A stretch of 64,000 nucleotides of DNA. Source: Escherichia coli (GTDB lineage: Bacteria; Pseudomonadota; Gammaproteobacteria; Enterobacterales; Enterobacteriaceae). Position numbers and translations under genes: made by a program. Under the pieces are notes generated by a model that saw only the letters and a list, made by a program, of their open reading frames with translations, did no database searches and was not told the DNA's origin. Below are positions 4,030-60,063 of this stretch, piece by piece; positions within the stretch are counted from its first letter, which is position 1; each line of letters opens with the position of its first letter. Where the stretch lies: the NCBI RefSeq assembly GCF_009931435.1, contig NZ_CP043415.1; one strand, 5' to 3'.

Positions 4030-5399
4030 AGCGTGCTCCCTCCGAAGTGATAGTTGTTCTGGTAACGACTGAGCATGCGGGCGGAAAGCTGCTGACGCAT
4101 GTAGCTCATCTGACGATCGACAACCAGCAGCGCATCCTGCTGTACCTGCACCTGTGACTGAAACGCCGCAATCTGCCGGGTGGCATCATTCATGTTGTCG
4201 TTAATATGCCCGATAACCGCTTCGTCATAATTTCCCGTGGCCACCATCGCCCGGGCCTGCTGTATCAGCTCCTGAATGTACTGCAGCAGGATGTCGTAAC
4301 CGATATAGTCCGTCAGCTGGTAAATCATACTGTTGGAAACACCGAGCATCTGCGGGTCAACCAGGTATTTGAAGACGGGGATGGTGGTACTGGAAATAAA
4401 GCCTTTTTCCTTGTCATCCAGAGGCGTGTCACTGACAGCCTTGTTCTGAATGCTGGCCAGAAGTTTAGTAATCTGAGACTTCAGTGCATTATCCCGGCTG
4501 ATGGTCACCGGTGTGTCTGCCACCACTTTCAGGCATTTATCAGAATCGTTGCAGTGATAAATTTTTGCTGTGCCGCCTTCCATCATGGCCCGGATAATTG
4601 AGCGGTCAGTGGTTCTGGCTGACAGCGGTGTGATTTCGCCGTTGGGACCAAACACCAGTGAGCCGGTCAGCGTCATCACAAACTCTTTCAGCTCTTTGTT
4701 GCCGTCAAACATTCTGTTTTTGGAAAGCGCATTCCACATGATGTTAATGTTTTTGGTCACCCGCTCCTTATCCTTGTCGCTGGCTTTATCCCTGACGCTG
4801 TCAGATTTACCGCCAACGGTACATCCCTGCCGGGAAGCCGCCCAGTCAGCAAAAATATTGCTCTCACCGGCAATGTCCTGACAGACTTTTTGCTGGGACA
4901 CCTGCGTCCGGGGGAAAAGCCCGCCGATAATCCCCTGCGCCGCCTGGCAGGAACTGAGGTTCATGCTGTTAATGTCGCTTGCCATTTTCTGCAGGAAGTC
5001 TTTTGCGGTTTTGATTTCCGGCACCGTTGTCTGCAGGGCAAGGTCAAAAAAGTAACCGGCAGCATTACTCATAATCTGCTTAACAAAACGCTGCAGCTGC
5101 TCACCATTAATAAAACTGAACGAACCGAGATAAGCGTCGATGCCGCCACATCCGGCATTGATATCCGGCAGCGTCATGGAAATCAGCTGAACATTTTTGA
5201 CCTGAGTACGGGCATACAGGGAGCCGCCGTAAGCATAGCCGGCAGCCTGCCCCTGCCAGACGCCCGGCTGTGTGGTATTGGAGGCGAAGCCCAGCTTGTT
5301 AAAGAACTGATTCATGTCGCTGTTCACATCCGCTGACGCTGCAGGCGTCACCGTCAGTAAGGCGGCACAAAGAATAAAAAGAGGCTTAATGCGAAGCAT
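4026..5399 (-). CDS. traH: TraH pilus assembly protein
   Basis: 457-aa ORF with signal peptide (MLRIKPLFILCAALLTVTPAASA); length and position match F TraH. Confidence 0.9.
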   Translation of the reverse strand: MLRIKPLFILCAALLTVTPAASADVNSDMNQFFNKLGFASNTTQPGVWQGQAAGYAYGGSLYARTQVKNVQLISMTLPDINAGCGGIDAYLGSFSFINGEQLQRFVKQIMSNAAGYFFDLALQTTVPEIKTAKDFLQKMASDINSMNLSSCQAAQGIIGGLFPRTQVSQQKVCQDIAGESNIFADWAASRQGCTVGGKSDSVRDKASDKDKERVTKNINIMWNALSKNRMFDGNKELKEFVMTLTGSLVFGPNGEITPLSARTTDRSIIRAMMEGGTAKIYHCNDSDKCLKVVADTPVTISRDNALKSQITKLLASIQNKAVSDTPLDDKEKGFISSTTIPVFKYLVDPQMLGVSNSMIYQLTDYIGYDILLQYIQELIQQARAMVATGNYDEAVIGHINDNMNDATRQIAAFQSQVQVQQDALLVVDRQMSYMRQQLSARMLSRYQNNYHFGGSTL

Positions 5400-5811
5400 T
5401 ATTGCTGCCCTCCCTTAATGTGTTCTCCCGGCGCATACGGCGTTTCAACAGGAATATCCCGATATTTCCGTATATTAATTCGTACATTGGGAACAGAAAA
5501 AATGTAACAAGAAACCCGACTGCAAGCGCATATAACGCATACGGAATGACATATATCAGGATATTCCACATATAAATCGAATTATTTAATTCTTGGTCCA
5601 TTTTCCACGAATCAATACAGGCATCAAAAATAATATTCATAGCTGTCCATAAAACAATTCCGGCAGTCAGAAATACCAGAGGCAATCCAGCATACCTGTC
5701 AGTAATTCTGGAAATGTATTTATAATCTCGTTCTGTACTTCTGATTTTGAGTTCAGGATTATTTTTATTTTCTCTCATTATAAGTTCCCTCTGATATTTC
5801 CGATAATTCAT
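5386..5811 (-). CDS. trbF: TrbF membrane protein
   Basis: Small hydrophobic ORF immediately upstream of traH; synteny with F trbF. Start codon uncertain. Confidence 0.65.
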   Translation of the reverse strand: MNYRKYQRELIMRENKNNPELKIRSTERDYKYISRITDRYAGLPLVFLTAGIVLWTAMNIIFDACIDSWKMDQELNNSIYMWNILIYVIPYALYALAVGFLVTFFLFPMYELIYGNIGIFLLKRRMRRENTLREGSNNASH

Positions 5812-6581: not shown

Positions 6582-6852
6582 GTCCGCCCTCCTGCTGCCC
6601 TTCCATCATGGCCTGTTGCCTGGCTTCCAGTGCCTCACGCTCTTCCCGGCTGACACGGGCAATCCATGCATCCAGCACCTGGTATGCGCCGAACAGTACG
6701 AGAATGGCCGCAATCAGCTCCGCCAGAAAAAAAGCCATCCAGGGTTTGCTGTAAACAAGACGGGCGACGATATGAAACCAGACACCCAGGGAAAATACCC
6801 ACATTCCCGTAATATCAAGCCGGGGTAAAGAGAATCTGCGTTTACTTATCAT
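6568..6852 (-). CDS. traQ: TraQ pilin chaperone
   Basis: 94 aa, same length as F TraQ; membrane protein at the conserved position. Confidence 0.85.
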   Translation of the reverse strand: MISKRRFSLPRLDITGMWVFSLGVWFHIVARLVYSKPWMAFFLAELIAAILVLFGAYQVLDAWIARVSREEREALEARQQAMMEGQQEGGHVSH

Positions 6853-6932
6853 GTTAAACTCCGGTTATTATTTACATGAGAGTATTCATGTCTGTAATAT
6901 TCGCGTTTGTGTGATATTAATCAGAGGTACAA

Positions 6933-7247
6933 ATGGAAAAGCGATCTTTTAAAGAAAAACTGGAAATAATCAGAAACATAATAAGAGAGTCGTTACTGGG
7001 AAATGCGGCAATTATTGCGCTGATATATGCAGCATCACATTCATTACCGGTCAATGCCTTCCCTGACTATCTTGTAATAAGTTTATTAAGTATCGCAGCA
7101 GTCATCGTTGTATTATGGTTATTTTCAATTATCTATATTTATTTTTGTGAGCTATTCAGAAGCCACTGGATTGCGGTATGGTTTATCATATGGTCTTCAG
7201 TAATCAACCTCATTATTTTGTATGGTTTTTATGACCATTTTATATGA
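6933..7247 (+). CDS. artA: ArtA, anti-sense-oriented small membrane protein of the tra region
   Basis: 104-aa hydrophobic ORF on the opposite strand between traQ and trbA, exactly as artA in F. Confidence 0.65.
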   Translation: MEKRSFKEKLEIIRNIIRESLLGNAAIIALIYAASHSLPVNAFPDYLVISLLSIAAVIVVLWLFSIIYIYFCELFRSHWIAVWFIIWSSVINLIILYGFYDHFI

Positions 7248-7248
7248 C

Positions 7249-7596
7249 TTAGCCTGTCATAAGCCCCCTTATAAAAAACCACATCACTCCGGACCATACC
7301 GATGACAACACAATACAGATAAATATTCTTCTGAACCTGTCGAAGCTCGTAACGTCCGGTAATGCGGCCGCAACTATTGAAACAACCAGTGCTGCGCCCT
7401 GACTCATAATTGCACCACACAGAAACCAGAGACTGGCGGTAAGCACATATAAACACGCGATATTAATAACAAGGAAAACCAGTGAGCTCAGGAGAAACAT
7501 TTTCCTGTCATTACGCTCAGAAAAGAAATAACCGGCAATAATGACAAACATTAACAGAACAACACCTGTAAACATTTTCAAATAATCTTCACTCAT
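7249..7596 (-). CDS. trbA: TrbA membrane protein
   Basis: 115 aa, hydrophobic, located between traF and artA as in F. Confidence 0.7.
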   Translation of the reverse strand: MSEDYLKMFTGVVLLMFVIIAGYFFSERNDRKMFLLSSLVFLVINIACLYVLTASLWFLCGAIMSQGAALVVSIVAAALPDVTSFDRFRRIFICIVLSSVWSGVMWFFIRGLMTG

Positions 7597-20926: not shown

Positions 20927-21292
20927 TCAGAGGCCAACGACGGCCATACCCACAGCAATAAATACAGAGATGATGGCAAAACCGGCCAGGAACTTGACGT
21001 TTTTGGTCATCATGTACATGACCGCACCGACCAGAACTTCAGCCAGAACAACCCATTTAACAACACTGGAGTCCTTACCGAAGGTCGCCTTAACCGTGGT
21101 GTTACCACTTGCCATCAGGTCCTGACCACTGCTGCCGGCGGCCATCGCCAGCTGCGGGAAGAACATCATCAGAACAGCAGCCGGGATCACAGCGCGAGCC
21201 AGGCGAAGCATATTCAGACGAGTGAATTTAGAAAAAAACGACTTCTTTTTGACGGGCGCAGAAACACCCTGAACACTTAAAACGGCGTCCAT
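20927..21292 (-). CDS. traA: TraA propilin (F-type pilin precursor)
   Basis: 121 aa; mature region [70 protein letters not shown] matches F pilin; N-terminus [11 protein letters not shown] is an allelic variant. Confidence 0.95.
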
Positions 21293-21334
21293 ATGATTCC
21301 TCTGTTTAATATTGATAGTGAAAAATAAAACTCT

Positions 21335-21550
21335 TTATATATCGTCTATGCTTTCAGCTTCCTCCTTTACTAAAGATGCATTATAAAAGTCTGGAAAACG
21401 ATTGAGATGATCTTTTAGTCTAATGAACACCTCATTAGTTTTTGTTCTTCCGCTACGATCTCTAGCTGCTAAAAGTTTCTGATTGGTTGTCTCATCCAGT
21501 ATTAATAAGACTTTGTTACCCGGTGCGGCTCTGGTTCTCCCTCTGCTCAC
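21335..21550 (-). CDS. traY: TraY ribbon-helix-helix oriT-binding protein (short, R100-type); GTG start
   Basis: 71-aa ORF directly upstream of traA, starting at GTG preceded by GGAGGAAAC. Confidence 0.8.
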   Translation of the reverse strand: MSRGRTRAAPGNKVLLILDETTNQKLLAARDRSGRTKTNEVFIRLKDHLNRFPDFYNASLVKEEAESIDDI

Positions 21551-21685
21551 GTTTCCTCCGCATAATTACTTGAGATAATAAAATATAATCATATAAATCA
21601 TCTTTAATGAAAACAAAAATAGAGTAAATTATATTAACAAAAACGGGAACCAATGGTTCCCGCAAAGTAACAATAAGTTAACAGC

Positions 21686-22333
21686 CTATCTTCCCAATAT
21701 TTCTTTTACTTTAGCATATAAAGGAAGTATCTTTTCCGTTCTAATCATTTCATCCAACCAGAGATCTCTAGAACTAAATCCATGTCGTTTAAATAATTTC
21801 ATGGTTTTCTTCTTTGATTTAGACACAGTGATGTTCATCTTTGCTGATGAATAATGATGGCTAAACCCTATCAGATATGGCTCAATGCCTACATATTCAT
21901 CAGATAGTACAATTAATTCATTGGTGTATTTAGACACAACAAACGATGACAGATTATCATTTGCTACCCAAATAAATCTCCAGATAAAGAAATAGCCGCA
22001 TGGTGTGATAACACTTTCTATGATCACACTCCATAACATATTATTAAGTAATATGTCATTATTACAATTTACACCATAAACTGAAGAGCATGATTCAATC
22101 TCTGCTCTGGATAACTGTAATTTACATTCCAACGTTAAACTATCAAACCATTCATCACATGAATTAAATGACGATCTGATAAGTTTTTCAAAGCGGTTAT
22201 TTTCCTGAATAAAAGAACCATCCTCGAAGCGGACACATACTGGATATTTTAAAAACGAAATAGCCTCTCCAAGACTATGAGGGAAATGCAATTGACTGAT
22301 GAGTGCTCTTTCTCTACGATCCATCGCACACAT
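21686..22333 (-). CDS. traJ: TraJ transfer activator
   Basis: ORF between traM and traY; start placed at [11 protein letters not shown], preceded by GAGGAGG. ORF track extends to 22411 via an upstream TTG. Confidence 0.8.
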
Positions 22334-22412
22334 AGGAACCTCCTCTAAGGATTCTATGGACAGTCGATGCAGGGAGTGGCTGCTCCCTGCATCGGCGATT
22401 TTCAGTTTCAAT
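22330..22412 (+). ncRNA. finP: FinP antisense RNA, complementary to the traJ leader/RBS
   Basis: Opposite the traJ start: perfect hairpin CGATGCAGGGAG-TGGCTG-CTCCCTGCATCG (22365-22394) followed by a T-rich tract, a stem-loop plus terminator architecture. Ends approximate. Confidence 0.55.
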
Positions 22413-22523
22413 TTTTAACGTGGCATTAACCACATAATCAATATACTAATTATTCTGATTATTGTCATCAGTTTGAACCATAAAAAACCATGATATTTGA
22501 ACAAAGTCAAAATTTATTTCACT

Positions 22524-22907
22524 TTATTCATCATCATTTTTTGGAAAGAACCTTTCCATCTCAACCGACACCTTCTCTCTGATATCTTCAACCATATTGG
22601 CATATTCAAACTTCGGTTTTCCGGAAACATGAGGGCTAAGAGACTCAATACCTAAAATCTTTGCCACCGTTGACTGCGTTTTTACAACACACTCAAGAAG
22701 AAGTTTATTAAACTCTGCCTGATTAAACGCTGATTCTTTTCGTTCCATCTGCGCTTCATAAACTCGCAATCCTAACTCAAGCAACATAGAGGCAATACTT
22801 GAATAACTAACATCTTTCTCTTTTGCTCCCTCTGCTCGCCTTTGCACAGCAATAGCATTTATTTTTTCAGACACATGGTCATTAACATAAACCTGAATTT
22901 TGGCCAT
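22524..22907 (-). CDS. traM: TraM relaxosome accessory protein
   Basis: 127 aa, MAKIQVYVNDHVSEKINAIAVQRRAEGAKEKDVSYSSIASMLLELGLRVYEAQ..., recognisable as F-family TraM. Confidence 0.92.
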   Translation of the reverse strand: MAKIQVYVNDHVSEKINAIAVQRRAEGAKEKDVSYSSIASMLLELGLRVYEAQMERKESAFNQAEFNKLLLECVVKTQSTVAKILGIESLSPHVSGKPKFEYANMVEDIREKVSVEMERFFPKNDDE

Positions 22908-22929
22908 AACACACCTTATTCACCTTCCT

Positions 22930-23260
22930 AAACAAACAATATATTTTCGTGCTCTCTATTCTGCACCTTATGACGAATCACCATTAGATTCATCATACTA
23001 AAATCACGATTCACTATACGAATCAGCAATCATCAAATGACGAATCTAATATAGATTCACGCGCCAAGTAAATAGATGTTTTCAAAAAAAATAGTCATTA
23101 CTGAATCATTGACAATTCGTGATAGATTCACTATCGAATCTATCACGAATCTCTGCAATATAATTCAAAATTATATAATATAAATATAGTTCATTAATTA
23201 CATGATTTAAAACACAAATCAGCAAAAACTTGTTTTTGCGTGGGGTGTGGTGCTTTTGGT
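22930..23260. other. oriT: oriT: origin of transfer with TraM/TraY/IHF binding region and F-type nic site (~23248/23249)
   Basis: Contains TTTGCGTGGGGTGT|GGTGCTTTTGGTGGTGAGAACCACCAACC, the F oriT nick-region sequence; AT-rich repeats toward traM. Confidence 0.85.
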
Positions 23261-23339
23261 GGTGAGAACCACCAACCTGTTGAGCCTTTTTGTGGAGTGG
23301 GTTAAATTATTTACGGATAAAGTCACCAGAGGTGGAAAA

Positions 23340-23849
23340 ATGAAAAAGTGGATGTTAGCCATCTGCCTGATGTTTATAAATGAGATCTGCCAGGCCACTG
23401 ATTGCTTTGATCTTGCAGGCCGGGATTACAAAATAGATCCTGATTTACTGAGAGCAATATCATGGAAAGAATCCCGTTACCGGGTTAATGCCATCGGTAT
23501 TAATCCGGTAACGGGATATGGCAGCGGACTGATGCAGGTAGATTCCCAGCATTTTAACGAACTGGCCCGCTACGGAATTAAGCCAGAACATCTGACAACA
23601 GATCCCTGCATGAACATTTATACCGGTGCTTATTATCTGGCAATAGCATTTAAAAAATGGGGCGTCTCCTGGGAGGCCGTTGGTGCATACAATGCCGGAT
23701 TCAGGAAGACCGAACGCCAGAACCAGAGACGTCTTGCCTACGCATCAGATGTTTACCGGATTTATACCGGGATAAAAAGCAGTAAAGGTATCCGGATTCC
23801 GGCCACGAAGAAATCACTTCCGGAAATTAACAGCGTGCAGAACAATTAA
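23340..23849 (+). CDS. Gene X / orf169-type lytic transglycosylase
   Basis: Start set at [19 protein letters not shown] (signal peptide); 169 aa; first gene on the leading side of oriT as in F/R1. Confidence 0.88.
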
Positions 23850-24094: not shown

Positions 24095-24147
24095 TGATAA
24101 TATAAGTAAAGCCCCGAAAAATTTTCGGGGCTTTACTTATATTATCA
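24095..24147. terminator. 53-bp perfect palindrome, likely bidirectional rho-independent terminator
   Basis: TGATAATATAAGTAAAGCCCCGAAAA/ATTTTCGGGGCTTTACTTATATTATCA, a GC stem flanked by A/T runs on both strands, between convergent genes. Confidence 0.6.
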
Positions 24148-24357
24148 TGACTTCCACTTTCTGAACTGTTCGGCAATCACCCATAACGCCTTGTTGATTC
24201 TTATATCACCATCAATACCTGTAATGACTCTTGTCCTGGTATTTTTCCCGGAGGCACTTCGCCCAGATAATCCACCTTTTATCATATTCTCCTGAACCCG
24301 CTGCCAGGTTGTCCAGAGATCGTTCTGTTTATCCTCCCGACGACGGGGAGTAATTAT

Positions 24358-26280: not shown

Positions 26281-26439
26281 CTACTTACCGGATTCGTAAG
26301 CCATGAAAGCCGCCACCTCCCTGTGTCCGTCTCTGTAACGAATCTCGCACAGCGATTTTCGTGTCAGATAAGTGAATATCAACAGTGTGAGACACACGAT
26401 CAACACACACCAGACAAGGGAACTTCGTGGTAGTTTCAT
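26281..26439 (-). CDS. hok: Hok-family toxin (flmA/hok), 52 aa
   Basis: Reverse-complement translates to [52 protein letters not shown]; below the 60-aa cutoff of the ORF track. Confidence 0.9.
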
Positions 26440-26497
26440 GGCCTTCTTCTCCTTGCGCAAAGCGCGGTAAGAGGCTATCCTGATGTGGACTAGACAT
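26285..26497 (-). CDS. mok: Mok (modulation of killing) overlapping reading frame
   Basis: 70-aa ORF overlapping hok in another frame, as in hok/mok/sok loci. Confidence 0.65.
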
Positions 26498-26535
26498 AGG
26501 GATGCCTCGTGGTGGTTAATGAAAATTAACTTACT
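26465..26535 (+). ncRNA. sok: Sok-like antisense RNA (approximate placement)
   Basis: Placed by the known architecture of hok/sok loci, antisense to the mok start region; not verified by structure. Confidence 0.35.
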
Positions 26536-26718
26536 ACGGGGCTATCTTCTTTCTGCCACACAACACGGCAACAAACCACCTTCACGTCATGAGGCAGAAA
26601 GCCTCAAGCGCCGGGCACATCATAGCCCATATACCTGCACGCTGACCACACTCACTTTCCCTGAAAATAATCCACTCATTCAGACCGTTCACGGGAAATC
26701 CGTGTGATTGTTGCCGCA

Positions 26719-27923: not shown

Positions 27924-31844
<3,921 letters not shown>

Positions 31845-41594: not shown

Positions 41595-43995
41595 GTAGCA
41601 GTGATGCATTACTGCATCACCGCCCCCTAAGAACCGTACGTGCCAGTTTCCCGGCATACGGCTCAAGCCTTTCTAAGCCCACTCTCATGAGCCGGTTTCA
41701 CTACATGTATACCTTTCGCATGAACAAGTGTGTGACACATCGGATGCAGCATAATCAAATTGGAGAGGCAGTTGCTCCCTCCATCGACTCGCCGTATGAT
41801 GTGATGAACCTGCCACTGGGAATCAGATGTAATCCTCTCATCACATATGGGGCATCGGCCCCGCTGCTCAAACCAGATTTGAATGAGCTTTTTCCGTCCT
41901 TGCAGTTTGTGCCGCATTTTGTCTGCACAACGCTCCTCAAAGTACATCTCCCATTGAGGATCGAACGGATTAGCTGCAATTTTAATCGGTTTAAACCGGT
42001 TGATAGGCGTATCGATTGCTTTCCTCAGATTTGCATACTGAGGCTTACCGTTGGCAAGGAGTTCTCCGGTAGCCGTGGAGAAAGACCAGTTTCGGGCACC
42101 TTGTTGATGGAAATATCTTTTCCGAATCCACTTCTTTCCCTTATTGGGATGACGCCGAACAGCCCAACGCCATAAAGCCAGCCAGATCTCATTGTCAACT
42201 TTGTTAAATGCGACCTTGGCCACAATGTGTTGATGGTAAGCCGCCCACCCTTTGATCATTGGGTTCAGCATGCGGATCAACGTAAGCTGATCCATAGCTT
42301 TGTTGCCTTTGATTACAGCGCGTATTTTCTTTAAAAAGGAACTGACATTGGCTTTAGAGGGTTTGATCAGCATCTTACCGCCATATTTGCGAATGTTCTG
42401 TCCAAGAAAATCAAATCCTTCCTCGATATGTGTGATTTTCGTCTTTTCCGGAGAAAGCATTAATCCTCTTTCAGCCATAAACCGCCTGACGACGGGTAAT
42501 ACCTGAGACTCAAGAAGTTCTTTTGACTCTCCAGTGATAATAAAATCATCAGCATATCTCACATAGTTAACTTTCGGGTTAACCAATCGTCCCTTGACTG
42601 TTCTCTTTTTAAACTCCGAAGCAAGAAGCGCCTCCAGTCCATCCAGAGCAATGTTAGCCAGTACAGGAGAAATTATTCCCCCCTGAGGAGTTCCTGAATT
42701 TACAGGGAATAACTGCCCCTTTTCCCTGTAACCCGCTTTAAGCCACTTTGTCAGGATTTGTCTGTCTGTTGAGGTGTTATCGATTAGCCATTGATGAGAT
42801 ATATTGTCAAAGCATCCCCGTATATCCCCCTCAAGCACCCATTCAGCGGATGTTTTCTGCGCAAGAACACAGAAGCACTGTGCTATCGCATCTGCAGTAG
42901 ACCTTCCAGTCCGAAAGCCGAAGGATCTCTGGTCAGCAGTGACTTCAGCAACGGGCTCAAGAGCCAGCAAATACAACGCCTGCATCGCCCGATCCTTCAT
43001 AGTGGGTATCCCAAGGGGACGAGACTTCCCATTTGACTTAGGTATATAAACCCGCTTAAGTGGCTGTGGTTTGTAACCACGCCGTTTCAGCAGGTTAATA
43101 GCAAGAAATTTAACCTCCGGGGAAGACCATGTCTGACCATCAACCCCAGGAGTACGTTTCCCGCTATTCTCTGTAACTCGTCTGACAGCAACTGCTCTGC
43201 CACTAAACGAGTGAGTCAGTATCCATTGCAAGGATTTGACCTTGCCATGTTTACCTTCTCGTGTTGCCTTTACGATACGCGCTTGCAGTCTCCGCACTTC
43301 CCGATAGCACTGACGCCAGTTGATACTGTGCCAGGAGTCACCGTTAAGTAAGGACGCACCTTTACAGGTTGTAGCCTGCTCAGTCATCTGCTTTTCCTTT
43401 CTGGAAGATTACTCAAACTCTCTCGTAATGAAAGACCCAGTGGAAGTCTGCCCGCTTTCGCGTAGGGTAATGTTGCCGGGCTCAACCCTTATCCGGTCCA
43501 TTACAGACTGGCATTCGCTTTTTCCACCTTCTTTTACCCGCACCGCCAACAGTATCCCTTGCGGTTAACCTGCCTCACGAGGCAGCGATACGGGCTTACC
43601 ATGTTCCACCTGAATAACAACAGTAGGTTAGACTCTGCTCACAACACCGGTGGTTTATTGTCCGTGTACCCCTAGCAAACAGAGGAGTAACCAACCACAT
43701 ACCTTTTGGTTCAAGCCTGTCAGCATCTTTGGCTTGTTCTGGTTAACGACGCTTCAGCAGTTCACATATGTTAGTCATGCTACCGAGCCTAGACCTCCTC
43801 CGCCTGATGCTGGCAGATTACATGTAACCTCACGGTTTCATGCGATCCGAAGATCCGGTTTCATTGTCCTGACAGCTTCACACCCCACCGTTACCAGTGA
43901 CGCATGTGTCAGTAGGCTACTGATGACGGAACATCAGGTTCCCTGACGGAATCGAACTCCGCTGGAACAATTATTCAGGCGACTTCATGTCGCAC
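41595..43995 (-). mobile_element. Group II intron (~2.4 kb) with intron-encoded RT-maturase-HNH protein
   Basis: Minus-strand 5' end GTGCGACATG at 43995; domain V GAGCCGTATGCCGGGAAACTGGCACGTACGGTTC at 41664-41631 overlapping the ORF stop; domain VI-like hairpin follows. 3' boundary approximate. Confidence 0.8.
41663..43387 (-). CDS. Group II intron-encoded protein (reverse transcriptase / maturase / HNH endonuclease)
   Basis: 574 aa; RT motif YVRYADDFII, maturase X region, C-terminal HNH block (CPICDERI…HHIIRRVDGGSNCLSNLIMLHPMCHTLVH). Confidence 0.92.
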   Translation of the reverse strand: MTEQATTCKGASLLNGDSWHSINWRQCYREVRRLQARIVKATREGKHGKVKSLQWILTHSFSGRAVAVRRVTENSGKRTPGVDGQTWSSPEVKFLAINLLKRRGYKPQPLKRVYIPKSNGKSRPLGIPTMKDRAMQALYLLALEPVAEVTADQRSFGFRTGRSTADAIAQCFCVLAQKTSAEWVLEGDIRGCFDNISHQWLIDNTSTDRQILTKWLKAGYREKGQLFPVNSGTPQGGIISPVLANIALDGLEALLASEFKKRTVKGRLVNPKVNYVRYADDFIITGESKELLESQVLPVVRRFMAERGLMLSPEKTKITHIEEGFDFLGQNIRKYGGKMLIKPSKANVSSFLKKIRAVIKGNKAMDQLTLIRMLNPMIKGWAAYHQHIVAKVAFNKVDNEIWLALWRWAVRRHPNKGKKWIRKRYFHQQGARNWSFSTATGELLANGKPQYANLRKAIDTPINRFKPIKIAANPFDPQWEMYFEERCADKMRHKLQGRKKLIQIWFEQRGRCPICDERITSDSQWQVHHIIRRVDGGSNCLSNLIMLHPMCHTLVHAKGIHVVKPAHESGLRKA

Positions 43996-51978: not shown

Positions 51979-54177
51979 TCAGAACAGCACTGAGTAGTTC
52001 AGACCAAAGGTTCGGCCCCGGCCTTTGTAGTCGTACAGTGAAGCAGGGCCGTAACCCGGGCTGTAGTACAGAGGTGCACGCTGTCCCCAGACAGTGGTAT
52101 AGTCACGGTCGAAGAGGTTCTCAACGCTGAAGCTGAGTGTTCCCACCGGAAGCAGCCAACTACTGATAAAATCGACGGTAGTGTAACCATTAATATCGTT
52201 ACCCTCTGCATCGCTTACGTCGAAAGAAGTGGTGCTCTGCACACGCAGACTCCACGGTTCCGGCGCCCAGCTAATGTAAGCTGTCGCTTTCGATGGACTT
52301 GATTCCTTCACGTCATATTTTTGCCATTGACCGTTCACTTTCGACTCGGTTTTCAGCACATTGAAGTTCACACCGGTACTCCAGTCAGTATCCGGGATCA
52401 GGTAGTCCACCGCACCTTCCACGCCGTAAATACGGCGCCTGTCGTCCTTCACACTGATGGTCAGATCTTTATTCCTTTCCACGCTCTTATTGGAAAGCGA
52501 GTAATATGCTGCGATTTGAGTCCGCAGGTTGTCACCGGTAAAGCGCCAGCCCAGTTCATAAGAATCGACTTTCACGCCTTCCAGCTTACTGTCGCTGACG
52601 TTCACGCTCTTTGTCAGGGGAAGATGGCCGTTCACTGCTGCACCATAGATGCCGCGACCATAATATTTCCCCGGATCCGGCAATGCCACCCCCTGGGAAA
52701 AATTGAACCATGCCTGCTGACGTTCGGTGATGTGCATCAGCAGACCAGCATTGAACAGAAAGTTATCGTAATCTACCGAACCACCAGGAATGGCGTCGGC
52801 AGATATCGCCTTCCCGGCAGCAATCTTCTGTTGCTGCATGTAGTCGATAAAATCATCTACCCTGTTCTCAGTATACTGATAGCGTACGCCACCGCTGACG
52901 GTAAAAATATCATTAATGTCATAGCTGGATTGCAGGAAGGCCGCCAGATTGGTGATGTCATATGACGGATAGCGCCCGGTGGTGTAAATCTTATGGTTGT
53001 TCAGCCCTCCGGAAGCACTTGCCTGAGCCAGATCGAAGAACATCTGGTTGGAGGTAAAGCGCTCATGCTCAGCATCCAGCCCCCAGGTGATTTGCCAGCC
53101 GTCCATCAGTTGGCTGTTCAGAGTCAGTTTCATGCCGTACTGGTCGGTATCCTGCTGTGACGAGGAGAAAGCCGTCGCCTGTTTATTCGCATTTACCGTC
53201 GGGAACGGGTAGAACCGCAACGACTCATCGCGGTAGTAAACCTGACCGACCAGTTCCTGTCTCAGGAAATCACTGTCAGAGTACTGCAGGCTGATCAAAT
53301 GCCGCTCAGTGCCGGGAATGCGGTCAGAATTCAGCCCCTTACTGACGTATGGTGTGCTGCTCCCGCTGATGGCGGAAAAGCCTTTCCCGAGATTAAGCCC
53401 GTAATTGTCGTCCCCCTGACTTTTATAGTACTGCGTTATCAGTTGAAGCTGCCGGGATTCATCGATGTTCAGCGTACCGGTTCCCATGATGTCCAGCCGA
53501 TTGGAGTGCTGCAGGCCGGTCTGGGTGTTATCAAGCAGGGTAGCATCGCCGTTACCGTCAAACCAGCCGCCAAATTTCTGATATGCCACGGAAAGACGTC
53601 CGGAGATATGGTCATTTCCGCCGGAGACAGCACCGGCAATGCGCTCATCGTGATCTTTACTGCTGTTAAAGCCACTTTTTGTGCCAGCCTCAAACTCCAT
53701 CATGGTTTCCGGCTGGCCTTTTTTGGTCACGATGTTTATCAACCCTCCGGTACTCCCGCCACCGTACAGGGCCGTCGCGCCGGAGATCACTTCAATATGG
53801 TCGATATTAAAAGGATCGACAGAGTCCAGTTGTCGGCTGTCGGAACGTGAAGAGTTGAGGCGCACACCGTCAATCAGGACAACCAGCGGGCGGCCACGCA
53901 TGTTCATACCGTAGTTGGTTCGGCTCTGGCTGCTGACATCAAGGCCGGGGATTAACTGAGCCAGTGCGTCTTTCAGCTCTTTACCGCCCTGAATCTGCTG
54001 CTCCAGTTCGGCATTTTCGATAACCCAGGTGGTTTGCGCCATCTCCGCTACAGTTCGATTGCTGCGGCTGGCAGACACTATGATCTCATTATCATCGTTT
54101 TGCTGGGCGACAGCTGGTGACAACACGACAAGAAGCAGCGGACCAAGAGCCCGGGGCATATACTTTTTGCGCATCAT
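51979..54177 (-). CDS. iutA: IutA, TonB-dependent ferric aerobactin receptor
   Basis: Start set at MMRKKYMPRALGP…, giving 732 aa; C-terminal TonB-box-family terminus …GLNYSVLF. Confidence 0.93.
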   Translation of the reverse strand: MMRKKYMPRALGPLLLVVLSPAVAQQNDDNEIIVSASRSNRTVAEMAQTTWVIENAELEQQIQGGKELKDALAQLIPGLDVSSQSRTNYGMNMRGRPLVVLIDGVRLNSSRSDSRQLDSVDPFNIDHIEVISGATALYGGGSTGGLINIVTKKGQPETMMEFEAGTKSGFNSSKDHDERIAGAVSGGNDHISGRLSVAYQKFGGWFDGNGDATLLDNTQTGLQHSNRLDIMGTGTLNIDESRQLQLITQYYKSQGDDNYGLNLGKGFSAISGSSTPYVSKGLNSDRIPGTERHLISLQYSDSDFLRQELVGQVYYRDESLRFYPFPTVNANKQATAFSSSQQDTDQYGMKLTLNSQLMDGWQITWGLDAEHERFTSNQMFFDLAQASASGGLNNHKIYTTGRYPSYDITNLAAFLQSSYDINDIFTVSGGVRYQYTENRVDDFIDYMQQQKIAAGKAISADAIPGGSVDYDNFLFNAGLLMHITERQQAWFNFSQGVALPDPGKYYGRGIYGAAVNGHLPLTKSVNVSDSKLEGVKVDSYELGWRFTGDNLRTQIAAYYSLSNKSVERNKDLTISVKDDRRRIYGVEGAVDYLIPDTDWSTGVNFNVLKTESKVNGQWQKYDVKESSPSKATAYISWAPEPWSLRVQSTTSFDVSDAEGNDINGYTTVDFISSWLLPVGTLSFSVENLFDRDYTTVWGQRAPLYYSPGYGPASLYDYKGRGRTFGLNYSVLF

Positions 54178-54179
54178 CG

Positions 54180-55517
54180 TTATTCCTGAATATTTGTTGT
54201 ATAGTGAGTTAAAGAAGCAGCCTCCGGCTGCGGTTTTTTCCGGCTGCCGCTGCGCCACTGAATCAGTGCGGGCGGCATACTGAGATCGAATAAATCACGC
54301 CCCAGTACGCGATTAAGAATACGTGCAGATCTCCAGGCCATCAGGCTGAGCTGGGGTTCGGCGATGCCATGAGTTTGCATGCTGGCGTTGACCGCAAAGA
54401 TGTTATTTTCTTTCGGGCCACTCCATTCCAGAGTGAAGTCATCACGCACTTTAAAGGTGTTCTTATCGTGCATGGTGATCAAGGGCATCAGTGAGGGAAG
54501 TATTTGTGGCAATGCAGAACGGTAACCTGTGGCGAAAATCACCACATCACTTTCCAGGCTCTCTCTGCCCCGATCCAGATGATGTTCCATCAATAACTTC
54601 CAGCCCGGACCACTACTTTCCAGAGTTGTTACCGAGCGGCTGGGTAGCAGACGGATATTTCTTGGTTTTCTCAGAACTTCAAAACGGTGGTACAACTCAC
54701 GATAAATGGTCAGTAAAGAATCGGCAGTGATGCCATCCGATGTCATTTTCTGCTCATCCAGTAACTGATGGCGAATATCTTCCTTCAGTCCGGAGAAGCC
54801 TGAAATATATTCAGGTGTAAAATACTCATCAGCAAAAGCAGCCTCATCCAGTGCGTTAAAATTATTACGCCGTGAGACCCAGTTTATTTCCGCCGCTTCT
54901 CCCCATTCCCCGCGTAATGCATTAAGGAACAGGTCTGCACCACTCTGTCCTCCACCAACCACAGTTATCCGTTTTCCACTCAGGTCCGGCCGACGAAGAT
55001 TCATTTCACTGGCATGGAAACAGGATTGTGTCACATGCTTCACACAGGGTGGTAAATAAGGTTGTTTTCCTGTACCAAGGCAGATATTGCGGGCAAAATA
55101 TTCTCCCCGACTGGTCTGAACCAGAAACAATCGACTTTTTTTGTCGAAATCAATATTTTCAACGGTATGACTGAAATACAGGTTATTCATATCTTCAGCA
55201 GCCCAGCGGAGATAGTCAGAAAACTCTTCACGGGATACTGTACGTAGTCTGCTTGTAAGGAAGCGATAGAACTTTTTGTGCTTCACCAGATAGTTAACAA
55301 AGCTGTAGGGATTTGTAGGTGCAACTGCACTGACCAGATCTTTCAGAAAGACAGTCTGCATATGACAATCCGGTACCAGCATACCCGGATGCCAGGAAAA
55401 ATGAGGATGTTCGTCAAAGAAGAGACAGTTCAGTTCTTCGATCTGATGTGACAATGCAGCAATACTGAGATTAAATGGCCCTGTCCCGACACCAATAAAA
55501 TCGACACTTTTTTTCAT
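54180..55517 (-). CDS. iucD: IucD, L-lysine N6-monooxygenase
   Basis: FAD/NADPH-binding motifs GVGTGPFNLS and GGGQSG; position in the iuc operon. Confidence 0.9.
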   Translation of the reverse strand: MKKSVDFIGVGTGPFNLSIAALSHQIEELNCLFFDEHPHFSWHPGMLVPDCHMQTVFLKDLVSAVAPTNPYSFVNYLVKHKKFYRFLTSRLRTVSREEFSDYLRWAAEDMNNLYFSHTVENIDFDKKSRLFLVQTSRGEYFARNICLGTGKQPYLPPCVKHVTQSCFHASEMNLRRPDLSGKRITVVGGGQSGADLFLNALRGEWGEAAEINWVSRRNNFNALDEAAFADEYFTPEYISGFSGLKEDIRHQLLDEQKMTSDGITADSLLTIYRELYHRFEVLRKPRNIRLLPSRSVTTLESSGPGWKLLMEHHLDRGRESLESDVVIFATGYRSALPQILPSLMPLITMHDKNTFKVRDDFTLEWSGPKENNIFAVNASMQTHGIAEPQLSLMAWRSARILNRVLGRDLFDLSMPPALIQWRSGSRKKPQPEAASLTHYTTNIQE

Positions 55518-57256
55518 GATTCATATTCCTGAGTTACCAGCCACAGCGGATTTTGCAGATTCTCAAGGTAATTCGGCAGCATGCGACTGCCGCCATCCTG
55601 GTCCGGCCAGGTCAGTTTTACCGGGTTCAGCACCACGCGAATGATTTGTGGCCTGAAGAGTGAGAAAAGCGCAAAACGCTCTGACATTTGTGGATGTTTG
55701 TTCATGTAATCACTCAACACTGCTGCCAGCAGTTGATAAAATCGCCTTTCAGGTACGCCAAGACGAACCATCAGTGGCGAAATAAAACGCAGTACTGTCA
55801 CGAAGTGACCCGTCTGCAAATCATGGATTAAGTAGTCCGCACTCAGACGGGATGTGACATCACGCACCTCCTGAGGCAAAGAGTCCATTTCGGGAAACGC
55901 TTCTTTCACCAACCGCATATCGCCCTGGAAGTCTTTCAGCAGAACACGCTGTGGTACCCCCTCTTTCATGGCGAGCGTTATATTTTGTCCGTGTGCAATA
56001 AGCGCGACACCGTAGCGGCAAAGCAGGTGATACAGCGGAACCACAACCACCCGGAACAATTGCGTAAGCCAGGTTTCAGCGTCCAGTCCGGAGCGGTCGA
56101 TATATGCGCCTGCCAGCGGCTGATTGTTTTCGTCGCACTCCATCAGTGTTGCCATCAGAACCGGACTTTCATCCGGTTTCAGCCAGCGGCACGGATTCTC
56201 CCGCCAGATAACACCAAGCATTTCCTGGTAGCGATAGGGAGCCCGGGCAAGCGCGGCATAGCCTTCATGGGACACATAGCCTGCAGCCGGTTCACCAAGG
56301 ATCACTGCGCCGCTTTGCACCAGGGTGGCGTCGGTCGCAAAAACCTGTTGCAGCCAGCGTGAAGCCAGTGGTCCGGCAGCGATATATCTGCCAGGGATCC
56401 CCCGGTAGCATGAGGTGTTGTAGATGGTCAGCGGCAGCTTGATATCCAGCCCTCCCCGGCGGCTGGCGTTGGTCAGGGTACGCAGCGACTGCTGGGCGAG
56501 CCACTGGTCGCCAAACTCGCCGAGAGACACCATCCTGCCTTCGGCAAAATCAGCGATGAAGTCGGTGGCGATTTTTTGCTGCCACTGCCACGGATGTACC
56601 GGCAGCGGCAGCCAGTTGTGATCCAGCCCGTTTTCCTGCCAGACCTGACTGAAGCGTGTAAACTCCTGCGGATCCATTGCGGCAGTCAACAACTGCTGAA
56701 TATCCAGATCGTTGTCGCAGCGCCAGATCATATGTTCACGTTTTACCGCCAGCCAGTGCAGTCTGAAGGTGTTGGCATACTCTGGCGCATATCGTTCCAG
56801 CGCCTCTTTGCCCCAGCCACGGCGACCTTTATTAAAAACGAATTTAGGATGACCGCTCAGCAGGCATTGCAGACGATCGGCATCAAGATTAATCAGGTCA
56901 CTGGCACTCAGTCCGCGACGGGCCTTCAGCAGTTGCAGGTCGCCCAGTAGCGTGGCATACAAATCCTGCATATGCTCTGCAACAGTGGCATCACTCATTG
57001 ACAGCACCGGCTTTAGCTGCATCAGCAGCGTCTGCGCCAGTACTGGTTCGTCCGTGCAGCGCAACGTTTGGGCATCAATCCACAGCCAGCCCCAGATACC
57101 ACGTTCAGCGATGAAGCGCCATTGTGCTCCCGGCAGGTTAATGCAGTAGTGGTCATCGCCCTGAGATTCCGCGTGGAAAACCTGCTCATACTCCATCTCA
57201 GACAACATTTTTGCCACCAGCCGACGGTTAACAAAATCCCAGTCCTTGTGATTCAT
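55514..57256 (-). CDS. iucC: IucC, aerobactin synthetase (NIS synthetase)
   Basis: 580 aa, IucA/IucC family; operon position. Confidence 0.9.
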   Translation of the reverse strand: MNHKDWDFVNRRLVAKMLSEMEYEQVFHAESQGDDHYCINLPGAQWRFIAERGIWGWLWIDAQTLRCTDEPVLAQTLLMQLKPVLSMSDATVAEHMQDLYATLLGDLQLLKARRGLSASDLINLDADRLQCLLSGHPKFVFNKGRRGWGKEALERYAPEYANTFRLHWLAVKREHMIWRCDNDLDIQQLLTAAMDPQEFTRFSQVWQENGLDHNWLPLPVHPWQWQQKIATDFIADFAEGRMVSLGEFGDQWLAQQSLRTLTNASRRGGLDIKLPLTIYNTSCYRGIPGRYIAAGPLASRWLQQVFATDATLVQSGAVILGEPAAGYVSHEGYAALARAPYRYQEMLGVIWRENPCRWLKPDESPVLMATLMECDENNQPLAGAYIDRSGLDAETWLTQLFRVVVVPLYHLLCRYGVALIAHGQNITLAMKEGVPQRVLLKDFQGDMRLVKEAFPEMDSLPQEVRDVTSRLSADYLIHDLQTGHFVTVLRFISPLMVRLGVPERRFYQLLAAVLSDYMNKHPQMSERFALFSLFRPQIIRVVLNPVKLTWPDQDGGSRMLPNYLENLQNPLWLVTQEYES

Positions 57257-58203
57257 TACAGACCGACCTCCGTGAAGAAGTGATGACGATCCGCCATCAC
57301 CATGCGCGAGCGCTTATGTGGGAAGTCGAACTCTTTAATTGTCCGGTATCCCGCAGGCTCAAGATGGCGGAACAGGCGCTGGTTATCGGTGCGTGGCTCC
57401 AGTACTGTGCGCTGCGTACGGGGCTCATCCAGCAGCAGGTAATGTGTCAGCCCGCGCAGCCAGCTTTGCACATAGTGGGCCCCGCGCCATTGCTGTTCAC
57501 CAACCAGCAGATGCAGGCCACGGTCAAAGGGCTGCCACGAATAGTGACGACCAATGCGGTCTTCCGCCGCCCAGTAGATTTCAAAATAGCTGAATGGCCG
57601 ATCGTCGAAGCACCCAATCAGCGGAAATGCATGTTTACCGGTGAGCTGGCGCTCCAGATAGGCGGTCTGTACCTCCAGTGAGCCACTTTGCTCCCAGAAA
57701 TACTCAACGCGCGGATCATTCATCCAGCGGGTGAAACGTTCTGCATCAGAAACGGGATCGGCAATGCGGAAACTCAGCATCCTGCGAATACGTGGATCGT
57801 AACGGCGGTAAACCTCACCCTGCGGACGGGGTGGGCGCTGCGGGAAATAAATCTCACGCTCTGCATCAAAAACCATTTCACCGGAGGCCCGGTTTGCCGG
57901 TGAACTCAACCATAACGGTAACTGCCAGAAGGCGGTACGATGGATAATGTCGCTTTTTACCTGCCCAAAAAGCGTCAGCGCCTGTGGCTCCTCACACCAT
58001 TCGGCCCAGGGGAGAGCCACTGCTGACAGTTGTGGTGCGGCGATAAATATCTGATCCAGCGCATCGCACAGCCACCCTGTCGGCAGCTCCCCGGGACAGT
58101 GCAACACCGCGCTATTGTCCAGTCCCCAGCCAAGATTCAGGGGCTTGTCGAGTTTTTCACAGCGCAGTCCATATCTGCTGTGAATAATGTTTGCCTCAGA
58201 CAT
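57256..58203 (-). CDS. iucB: IucB, N6-hydroxylysine acetyltransferase
   Basis: 315 aa; operon position. Confidence 0.9.
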   Translation of the reverse strand: MSEANIIHSRYGLRCEKLDKPLNLGWGLDNSAVLHCPGELPTGWLCDALDQIFIAAPQLSAVALPWAEWCEEPQALTLFGQVKSDIIHRTAFWQLPLWLSSPANRASGEMVFDAEREIYFPQRPPRPQGEVYRRYDPRIRRMLSFRIADPVSDAERFTRWMNDPRVEYFWEQSGSLEVQTAYLERQLTGKHAFPLIGCFDDRPFSYFEIYWAAEDRIGRHYSWQPFDRGLHLLVGEQQWRGAHYVQSWLRGLTHYLLLDEPRTQRTVLEPRTDNQRLFRHLEPAGYRTIKEFDFPHKRSRMVMADRHHFFTEVGL

Positions 58204-59928
58204 TCAGACCTCCTGAGCCTGCAGCGGGTTAGCGAAATCGAAATAGATCACCGAAGGGTCAACAATGGTGTTCTCGTTATGATCGTTCAGATAACAGAAA
58301 AAGTTACCTTTTACGTTCCAGTACGGACTTTCCAGCACGTAGTTGAGACAGGTTTTATGAGTCACCTGATCACGCACTTCAGCCAGCGATGCTCGTACAC
58401 GAGCCATCAGATTCGATTCGCTGTCCAGCCCGGCAGCCCCCAGCGCAGCGGTCACAGCAAAAGTGGAGTTAACCAGCAGGTAATAAGGGAAATAGCGCAG
58501 CAACTGCTCATGGGTGAAAATATTTTCCGCCTGCGCCTCGCCAATAGAATCGAGCCAGTCTGTCGCGTGAGGCATAAAAGCGCTGCCCTGACAGTCACGG
58601 TAAATAAATCCGACCGGCAGATCCCCAAGCATCTGGACAAGAATATTTTGCTGATGCGCCAGCAGCACCAGGCCGTAATCCGCTTCAGCCGTAAACAGCG
58701 GCTTTAGCACTTGCTGACAGTATGCATCGACCCATGCATGGGCGGCCTGTTGCACAGTGATACCGAGGCGATCGCTCAGGCGTTTTACCGCCGAAACCAG
58801 CAGCGAATCACCGCCATCAGGTGCGGCCTGAGTCAGGGAGACCAGTACGTTGGTCTGGCTTTTCGGCTGATCCACCAGCAGATTTTCACGCAGGGCAAAC
58901 AGACTTTCCTGCATGATGTTGCCGTTAAGATCGAGCAGCCCGGCCCAGCCATCCTCCTGCATTACCCGGAAAGTCGGGAAGCGGACCTGTAGCATCTGCC
59001 AGCCGTCGGTTTGAGCCAGGCGTGCCAGGCGCATCCCACGCTTCACTTCTTTCACGGACAGAGTACGGATGGAGTTGGTCAGCCGTACGCTCAGGGAGAA
59101 CTTGATCATATCGCGGCTGGTGGCACAGTAGAGGGAACGGGAAGAGGTGGTCGGCAGCCACGACGTGCCGGCCTCACCTAAGTCTTTAATCAGCCCTTTA
59201 GCAACAAGTGCCTGGCACCACCCCTGCTGCAAAAGATATTCCCCCTGCCACGGGTGCAACGGGAACAGCCATTGGTTGTCACTTAATTCGTTGAGTAACT
59301 GAGGCGCATTCTCTGCGGCAAATCGCGTCAGCCGCTGTTGAAGGTTGAGATGCAAACTTTCACCGGCGATTTGCGTTTTATCCACCGAAAACCACCGCAG
59401 TGGGAAGTGGGGTGCCATATCAGGCAGGTAGCGTTCAGCCTCCCGCCGGTTAAACGGTTCATGAGACTTAGGCGCAGGGTGGAAAGCGTGTCCTGTCAGC
59501 AGCGCCTGCTCAGCTTCGCCAAAATTCAACGCTTTTTCACGCAGGGCGGTCCAGTCATGACGGGCATCAATTGCCTGTTGCGTATGGGCGTGGCTTTCCA
59601 GCACGCGCTGGTGGAAAGTTTCGCAGAGGGGAACGGGCAGAAACAGTTGATGCCGTAGCTTATCAATAATAAGCCGGGAGAGAGTGGTAAAGTCGACAGG
59701 ATAACTGCCTGATGCCGTGACCAGACGTGCAGGAAATGCAAAGCGGTGATGCTGGGTTGGGGAGAAATAAGCCACTCTGAAATGGAGCGATTTCTGCTCA
59801 TCCAGCGGGATGATCAATTCGTCTGGCGGGTATTCTGTCAGTTTCCAGTCTGTGGTTTCACGAATCAGTGCATTCAGGAAGCACTGCGCAGCCACATCTG
59901 TGGCTGGTTTTTCAGAGGGCAGGGTCAT
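58204..59928 (-). CDS. iucA: IucA, NIS synthetase
   Basis: Start set at MTLPSEKPATDVAAQ (574 aa); the ORF-track N-terminal extension is the Fur box read as codons. Confidence 0.88.
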   Translation of the reverse strand: MTLPSEKPATDVAAQCFLNALIRETTDWKLTEYPPDELIIPLDEQKSLHFRVAYFSPTQHHRFAFPARLVTASGSYPVDFTTLSRLIIDKLRHQLFLPVPLCETFHQRVLESHAHTQQAIDARHDWTALREKALNFGEAEQALLTGHAFHPAPKSHEPFNRREAERYLPDMAPHFPLRWFSVDKTQIAGESLHLNLQQRLTRFAAENAPQLLNELSDNQWLFPLHPWQGEYLLQQGWCQALVAKGLIKDLGEAGTSWLPTTSSRSLYCATSRDMIKFSLSVRLTNSIRTLSVKEVKRGMRLARLAQTDGWQMLQVRFPTFRVMQEDGWAGLLDLNGNIMQESLFALRENLLVDQPKSQTNVLVSLTQAAPDGGDSLLVSAVKRLSDRLGITVQQAAHAWVDAYCQQVLKPLFTAEADYGLVLLAHQQNILVQMLGDLPVGFIYRDCQGSAFMPHATDWLDSIGEAQAENIFTHEQLLRYFPYYLLVNSTFAVTAALGAAGLDSESNLMARVRASLAEVRDQVTHKTCLNYVLESPYWNVKGNFFCYLNDHNENTIVDPSVIYFDFANPLQAQEV

Positions 59929-59970
59929 AGTCAAACAGCTCCCACACAGTAAAATAATAACAATTATGTC

Positions 59971-59989
59971 AATAATGATTCTCATTATC
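59971..59989 (-). promoter_or_regulatory. Fur box (iron box) in the aerobactin promoter
   Basis: AATAATGATTCTCATTATC, a close match to the Fur consensus GATAATGATAATCATTATC, just upstream of iucA. Confidence 0.8.
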
Positions 59990-60063
59990 AATAAGAAATG
60001 TTATTGTCAGATGAATTAATTTTACAAATAAACACAATTAATACATGGAGTTGAAACATTAAA

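Follow-up and report, generated by a model that had tools for sequence, protein, structure and literature searches.

A non-F traM-traJ-traY cassette adjoins the conserved oriT nick of an F-like Escherichia coli plasmid

RESULTS

Organization of the oriT region

The stretch of DNA analyzed here, which we call the window, comprises 64 kb of Escherichia coli contig NZ_CP043415.1. Its left 23 kb hold an IncF tra operon, encoded on the - strand and intact from traM to traG. The order of genes and sites is gene X, oriT, traM, finP, traJ, traY, and then traA through traG, with family matches above cut-off. ORFs and family matches place oriT between the divergent gene X and traM, upstream of traJ, traY and traA, and relatives are annotated alike. 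Gene X (orf169; 23340..23849, + strand) is the first gene of the leading region and encodes a 169-aa lytic transglycosylase (Pfam SLT, PF01464), annotated in relatives as an SLT domain protein. The interval between traM and this SLT gene, 22908-23339, contains gcaaaaacttgtttttgcgtggggtgt and ggtgcttttggtggtgagaaccaccaacc, which meet at the nick. Features of an IncF/MOBF12 oriT are present, namely inverted repeats that flank the nick and an IHF-like site within A+T-rich DNA. The initial annotation concerned 22930-23260, which corresponds to the TraM-binding half of oriT and reaches the nick; the right-hand inverted repeat (23256-23275) extends slightly past it.

The nick core (23222..23275, + strand) was defined by reading the sequence, checking its uniqueness, detecting inverted repeats and matching it to F. 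Positions 23238-23253 carry the conserved TraI binding and cleavage sequence, with GCGTGGGGTGT before the nick and GGTGC after it, and the longer stretch 23234-23259 reads tttgcgtggggtgt followed across the nick by ggtgcttttgg. A scan for the motif GCGTGGGGTGTGGTGC found a single copy in the 64 kb, on the + strand only. We assign the nick to 23248/23249 on the + strand, which appears, by analogy, to be the strand that is nicked and transferred. Around this point lie an 8+8 hairpin (GCAAAAAC/GTTTTTGC, 23222-23239), the TraI single-strand binding and cleavage site (TTTGCGTGGGGTGT and GGTGCTTT, joined at the nick), recognized by its likeness to F oriT oligonucleotides, and the nick-flanking inverted repeat TTGGTGGT/ACCACCAA at 23256-23275. 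Biochemical work on TraI used F oriT oligonucleotides whose sequence matches the nick of the window (PMC3074121).

A 72-bp nick core is 100% identical to that of the F plasmid (NC_002483.1), which indicates homology rather than chance. The nick of R100, GTAGTGTGT, is two bases off the F form, a difference that lowers the affinity and cleavage of F TraI (PMC3074121). Both forms were read directly in F and R100, and the window, with GTGGGGTGT, does not have the R100 type. When F, R100, pSLT and an R1-like plasmid are aligned, the GGGG nick core is seen in all but R100, which has AGTG. Among 4545 matching plasmids, 2289 carry the 72-bp core at 100% identity. Judged from these sequences, the GGGG nick is not specific to F and is the majority type among F-like plasmids. 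The initial annotation's F-type oriT with a conserved nick is thus borne out by the 72-bp identity to F, but not in the sense of an F-specific core, since the R1-like plasmid and pSLT share it.

A 1.9-kb non-F cassette in an F-like backbone

On both sides of a 1.9-kb cassette (~21284..23204, - strand) that holds traY, the PY promoter, traJ, finP, traM and the sbm and sby sites, the window is 97.5-99.6% identical to F. The cassette was delimited by the ends of blastn HSPs, a 500-bp identity profile and junction alignments. In blastn, identity to F is 99.2% over 19.2 kb (traD to trbD) and 99.6% from traP to traA; similarity to F collapses from ~21303 to 23204 and resumes at 97.5% from 23205 rightwards, in agreement with the 500-bp profile. 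The alignments place the left breakpoint at about traA codon 3 (~21284) and the right one ~45 bp left of the nick (~23204). The propilin encoded by traA itself (20927..21292, - strand) differs from that of F by N2D and A10V only. Since both changes fall within the leader of 51 aa, the mature pilin is the same as in F; the variant pilin N-terminus reported in the initial annotation is therefore real and confined to the leader.

The same backbone is only 89-97% identical to R100 (NC_002134.1; R100/NR1) in blastn. Ten proteins have F's RefSeq accession (TraL, TraK, TrbG, TraR, TraC, TrbI, TrbE, TraQ, TraS and TraT), and none of these ten accessions is common to R100. Between traR and traC, the ORFs specific to R100 are missing, and trbG, which is not an R100 gene, is present. 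Given these identities and the F-identical proteins, the backbone is F-like and the replaced cassette is the foreign part. Compared with F, R100, the R1-like plasmid and pSLT, nucleotide similarity within the cassette is ~80% for traM and finP and 72% (to R100) for traY; the TraM-binding DNA has no nucleotide similarity to any of these four references. Likeness to R100 is limited to traY, the proximal PY region and a ~45-bp A+T-rich stretch beside the nick.

Elsewhere in the backbone, identity to F dips to 93.6-96.8% at window positions 5132-5632 (the trbB/trbJ/trbF region), amid values of 99-100%. This dip suggests a second, small recombination patch.

TraM and its predicted binding sites

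The traM gene (22524..22907, - strand) encodes a full-length Tra_M protein of 127 aa (Pfam PF05261, 180 bits; NCBIfam NF010267, 222 bits). Its C-terminal tetramerization and TraD-binding domain is 93% identical to that of F. The N-terminal RHH domain, at 64-71% identity to F, R100, pSLT and R1, is a distinct allele. PDB alignments to the TraM proteins of F, R1 and pED208 show the ribbon K3-I-Q5-V-Y7, shared with R1 and pED208. In those systems TraM residues K3, Q5 and Y7 read GANTC, R1 and pED208 TraM bind GANTC elements, and a single TraM tetramer touches GANTC motifs with 12-bp spacing (Wong et al. 2011, PMC3159463).

The DNA next to traM fits such a read-out. Ten GA(A/T)TC motifs lie in 22975-23151. 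At 10 per 230 bp, this is the densest clustering of GANTC in the 64-kb window (median 1), and shuffled sequences (10,000) had 0.62 motifs on average and at most 5. By motif scan, the predicted traM-proximal sites (sbmA/sbmB-like, 22975..23058) consist of three GA(A/T)TC pairs with 12-bp spacing (22975/22987, 23008/23020 and 23042/23054) and overlap the presumed traM promoter region. The predicted nick-proximal, sbmC-like site (23103..23151), found by motif scan and inverted repeat, has five GANTC-type motifs phased exactly 11 bp apart, at 23103, 23114 (degenerate), 23125, 23136 and 23147, inside a perfect 15-nt inverted repeat (ATTCGTGATAGATTC/GAATCTATCACGAAT).

GANTC counts by oriT are 10 in the window, 9 in the R1-like plasmid, 2 in R100 and 0 in F. 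The F-type sbm motif A(G/C)CG(G/C)T occurs three times in F and not at all in the window oriT. The window TraM, with Q5, departs from the F (type I) pattern of K3/N5 with A(G/C)CG(G/C)T motifs, and it shows the R1 (type III) pattern of K3/Q5/Y7 with GANTC sbm sites. By analogy with R1 and pED208, we predict that this TraM allele reads GANTC.

TraY, the A+T-rich spacer and the PY region

In agreement with the initial annotation, traY (21335..21550, - strand) has a GTG start and encodes the short, single-domain form of 71 aa with one RHH unit (ORF; Pfam PF05509, NCBIfam NF010300). RefSeq relatives carry the same 71-aa, GTG-start annotation (WP_001352842.1). The protein is R100-related: it scores 140.3 bits against the equivalog model NF010300 (cut-off 114), to which R100 TraY matches with 164 bits, and its identity is 69% to R100 TraY and 45-54% to the TraY proteins of F, the R1-like plasmid and pSLT. 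It falls far below the cut-offs of the F-type tandem model NF010303 (48.5 bits against 232) and the R1-type model NF010302 (72 against 147).

Between the TraM sites and the nick lies an A+T-rich spacer (23152..23221), the predicted binding region for IHF (IHF-A) and TraY (sbyA), as suggested by a four-plasmid alignment and an IHF scan. The spacer is most like R100 (84% identity over 23160-23204), and blastn and alignment gave no match to F within it left of ~23205. The consensus scan found an IHF-like site at 23195-23207 on the - strand (AATCATGTAATTA, one mismatch to WATCAANNNNTTR).

The region upstream of traY (21551..21685, - strand), the putative tra operon promoter PY, was delimited by alignment and hairpin detection. 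It contains a direct repeat that is ArcA-like, TGTTAACTTATTGTTAC (21667-21683). An allele-specific inverted repeat with a 9-bp stem, GCGGGAACCATTGGTTCCCGT (21643-21663), lies immediately upstream of the -35 region of PY. This inverted repeat sits where R1 has its jbs, the site bound by TraJ, the positions of R1 abs and jbs being taken from PMC7303359, and R1 and R100 carry other inverted repeats in its place. It is a candidate binding site for the TraJ of the class described below. Like the sites for TraM, TraY and IHF, it is assigned here by motif and analogy of position, and all four should be read as putative.

TraJ and FinP

The 215-aa activator of PY is encoded by traJ (21686..22333, - strand). 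It matches NCBIfam NF010273 over 215 of 215 positions (507.4 bits, cut-off 445), whereas F TraJ falls in NF010275 and R100 TraJ in NF010272. Against those two models the window protein scores 35 bits (cut-off 252) and 28.6 bits (cut-off 442), respectively. Amino acid identity to TraJ of F, R100, the R1-like plasmid and pSLT is 22-29%, and at the nucleotide level 21686-22290 resembles none of them. On these sequence comparisons, the window TraJ is an allele class of its own. NF010273 corresponds to PRK13719.1-2, and the cassette is as in pJIE186-2 and ColV-type plasmids. The TraJ proteins of the R1-like plasmid and pSLT had no NCBIfam match at E<=1e-20, which leaves a mapping of NF010274 to the R1/pSLT type unconfirmed.

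The finP antisense RNA (22327..22402, + strand; Rfam RF00107, 99 bits, cut-off 45) lies opposite the traJ 5' UTR (22328-22435, - strand; RF00243, 115.5 bits, cut-off 50), and a terminator-like hairpin is found in the finP region at 22363-22396.

Relatives, relaxase alleles and spread

Four sequenced E. coli plasmids match positions 1-25000 of the window at 100% identity, and a fifth does so almost fully. The 2.6-kb segment that spans traY to gene X is present at 100% identity in five plasmids (NZ_CP065971.1, CP057923.1, CP057960.1, NZ_CP157153.1 and pSTEC2018_607-c, NZ_CP075700.1), at >=99% in 197, and at >=80% coverage in 317. Two carriers at 99.5% are pJIE186-2 (NC_020271.1) and the APEC plasmid pEND_Eco 19025-1 (NZ_CP126932.1). 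The carriers share TraM WP_001063020.1, TraY WP_001352842.1 and TraA WP_000340282.1 and have F-like backbones with trbG. They lack the IS100 found at 28709-30662 of the window, and their cargo regions differ. The initial annotation had set its proposal of a mosaic backbone against the case of all allele-specific elements matching a single known plasmid. The mosaic is real, in the form of the ~21284-23204 cassette within an F backbone, and yet the full set of elements is found, at 100% identity, in each of the five plasmids just named.

Exact copies of TraM, TraY and TraJ are each present on at least 1000 contigs; their exact-sequence clusters have no reviewed UniProt entry (representatives B1VC83-85). 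Carriers of the cassette at >=99% come from E. coli, Klebsiella and further hosts. Most of these 197 plasmids are typed as conjugative, and so are 3980 of all 4626 plasmids with a match. The oriT and its exact allele combination are already known, widespread and covered by curated allele-specific NCBI models. A literature search gave no usable link between the cassette and the classical ColB4-K98 (type II) or P307 alleles; the title of a 1986 paper by Finlay et al. reportedly makes ColB4-K98 a type II and R100 a type IV allele.

The traI and traD genes lie outside the window, and we infer their alleles from two plasmids whose identity to window 1-25000 is 100%. Both encode the same TraI (WP_000986998.1), 97% identical to F TraI over residues 1-330. 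Residues 185-205 are identical to F, with Q193/R201, and R100 TraI has R193/Q201. Harley and Schildbach (2003) reportedly found that Q193 and R201 set the F-versus-R100 specificity of TraI. The last 60 residues of the relatives' TraD are identical to F. Relaxase, nick, TraD tail and TraM C-terminal domain would thus be mutually consistent, the traI and traD part resting on the relatives. The initial annotation had proposed comparing the TraM and TraY sites and the traI and traD alleles with the F, R1 and R100 specificity groups. Of these, the TraM ribbon and its predicted sites are R1/pED208-like, TraY with its predicted site is R100-related, and the TraI residues and TraD tail, as read in the two relatives, are F-type.

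In the relatives, traI (equivalent to window positions -8600 to -2560) is 95-99% identical to F, with stretches that are as R100-like or more so; this hints that traI is internally mosaic, with specificity residues that are F-type. The relatives also carry traD, traI, traX and finO intact. Intact finO is found at 6697-7254 of NZ_CP065971.1 and at 1722-2279 of another relative, and F has no annotated finO there. With an intact finO, these F-like relatives are probably repressed for transfer, unlike laboratory F.

DISCUSSION

The locus very probably acts as a functional oriT, in a natural plasmid very closely related to F (IncFIA/FIB/FIC, MOBF12, MPF-F) that carries known and widespread non-F alleles for specificity and regulation beside the nick. 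Each trans-acting factor has a matching cis site, which makes the mosaic internally consistent. A mechanism can be proposed by analogy with the F, R1, R100 and pED208 paradigms. FinP, together with the FinO that is intact in relatives, would control translation of the NF010273-class TraJ. TraJ would activate PY through its own inverted repeat at 21643-21663, where ArcA may also act on the promoter. The R100-related TraY and IHF would bend the A+T-rich DNA at 23152-23221, and TraM tetramers would assemble on the GANTC arrays at 22975-23151 through K3, Q5 and Y7, with the F-like C-terminal domain holding the C-terminal tail of TraD. TraI with Q193/R201 would then bind TTTGCGTGGGGTGT and GGTGCTTT on the + strand and cut at 23248/23249. 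The + strand would be transferred 5' first, led by gene X, hok/sok, psiB and ssb, with the tra operon entering last.

Comparison with named systems places the plasmid closest to F. Shared with F are the 72-bp nick core, gene X and the leading region (97.5%), the DNA from traA to traD (99.2-99.6%), the mature pilin, the ten Tra/Trb proteins and the IncFIA/FIB/FIC replicon typing. Against this, the 1.9 kb at 21284-23204 is replaced. The TraM N-terminal domain is 68% identical to that of F, with Q5 where F has N5; TraJ is 26% identical; and F TraY is a 131-aa tandem form, as opposed to 71 aa with one RHH unit in the window. R100 has in common with the window the short TraY of equivalog NF010300 (69%) and similar sequences in the A+T-rich IHF/TraY region beside the nick and in the PY -10 region. 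It differs in its nick (GTAGTGTGT), in TraI (R193/Q201), in TraM (R3/I5, against K3/Q5 in the window), in TraJ (class NF010272, 22% identity) and in a backbone of 89-97% identity with extra ORFs.

R1 (KY749247) was represented in these comparisons by a proxy, pV085-c (NZ_AP014877.1), whose TraM N-terminal domain is 100% identical to PDB 1DP3. This R1-like plasmid shares K3/Q5/Y7, a GANTC-rich TraM region, an 11-bp phased triple near the nick and the GGGG core, but its TraM N-terminal domain (71%), TraJ (27.7%) and TraY (49%) are divergent and its sbm DNA has no detectable similarity to that of the window. In the protein database, the TraM class that comes next in closeness is the R1 type. The complex of pED208 TraM with sbmA (PDB 3ON0; PMC3159463) has K3, Q5, Y7 and 12-bp motif pairs in common with the window. 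The pED208 N-terminal domain is 54% identical, and the alpha1-alpha2 loop of the window protein is two residues longer, like those of F, R1 and R100. The DNA is also laid out differently, as dispersed 12-bp pairs plus an 11-bp array, compared to the compact four-motif sbmA of pED208 that was crystallized.

Other readings of the locus need to be weighed. The initial annotation envisaged an R100-like tra backbone that had gained an F-type nick, which would imply an unusual pairing of relaxase and oriT. The short, R100-like traY, which passes NF010300, and the resemblance to R100 of ~45 bp beside the nick and of the proximal PY region would both follow from such a history. The backbone itself does not fit it: identity is 99.2-99.6% to F and 89-97% to R100, gene content is that of F, TraS, TraT, TraC, TraK, TraL and TrbG match F exactly, and the R100 ORFs between traR and traC are absent. 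Furthermore, the relatives' TraI is F-type, so that relaxase and nick are matched, and a GGGG nick is the majority type in F-like plasmids. We regard an R100-like backbone as exceedingly improbable. An R1 (type III) allele set placed within an F backbone is very unlikely. It would account for the shared K3/Q5/Y7, for the GANTC arrays including the 11-bp triple and for R1-type TraM being the next-closest class, but not for identities of 71% in the TraM N-terminal domain, 27.7% in TraJ and 49% in TraY, for the failure of TraY against NF010302 (72 bits against 147), or for an sbm region and traJ that have no nucleotide similarity to the R1-like plasmid.

A further alternative is that oriT is a relic, its mixed alleles being incompatible and the plasmid not self-transmissible. 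The relaxosome parts are indeed related to three prototype groups, and a literature search found no experiment for this allele set. Nonetheless, the tra operon is intact from traM to traG, traD, traI, traX and finO are intact in relatives, and each factor has its matching cis site. Moreover, the presence of the cassette at >=99% in 197 plasmids, with 3980 of 4626 matches typed conjugative, argues for continuing horizontal spread, and there is accordingly little chance that the site is a relic.

A more speculative proposal is that the cassette may represent an experimentally uncharacterized relaxosome specificity group. In such a group, TraM would read GANTC as in R1 and pED208, TraY and its site would be related to R100, and TraI and the nick would be of the F/R1 type. 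We consider this rather unlikely, though less so than the alternatives above. If it were true, TraM could let members of the group cross-talk with plasmids of the R1 type and TraY with those of the R100 type, while TraI, TraD and exclusion could do the same for F-type plasmids, and the lineage would be an unusually promiscuous mobilizer or target among IncF plasmids.

As a textbook IncF oriT, the locus has small discovery value, and its worth is chiefly descriptive. Close natural relatives of F, ColV/aerobactin virulence plasmids among them, keep the F machinery, exclusion, relaxase and nick but have another 1.9-kb cassette, and its sharp breakpoints illustrate the modular exchange of a traM-traJ-traY unit together with its cis sites. 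The predicted GANTC read-out is relevant to forecasting which IncF plasmids mobilize each other's oriT.

Finally, several features lie in the window to the right of oriT. A candidate RsmY RNA at 24108-24216 scored 26 bits in Rfam against a cut-off of 57 and was dismissed as a terminator-like hairpin. The leading region includes a hok/sok-type toxin-antitoxin system at 26281-26613 (sok RNA, 88.9 bits in Rfam, cut-off 59). It also includes a ParB/RepB/Spo0J-like gene interrupted by IS100 (IS21 family, 28709-30662), with istA at 28795-29817, istB at 29814-30596 and a 5-bp target duplication, ACACA. No IS occurs at this site in the closest plasmids or in the E. coli complete-genome collection, and no record of the plasmid collection has the IS100 there; the insertion makes the window plasmid a new variant of its lineage. 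A group II intron reverse transcriptase/maturase (ltrA, 574 aa) at 41663-43387 adjoins a DUF1281 gene and is also present in the closest relatives. The aerobactin operon iucABCD-iutA, on the - strand and followed by an MFS transporter, occupies 51979-61257 and is flanked by an IS3-family element; this region is ColV-type virulence cargo on the F-like backbone.
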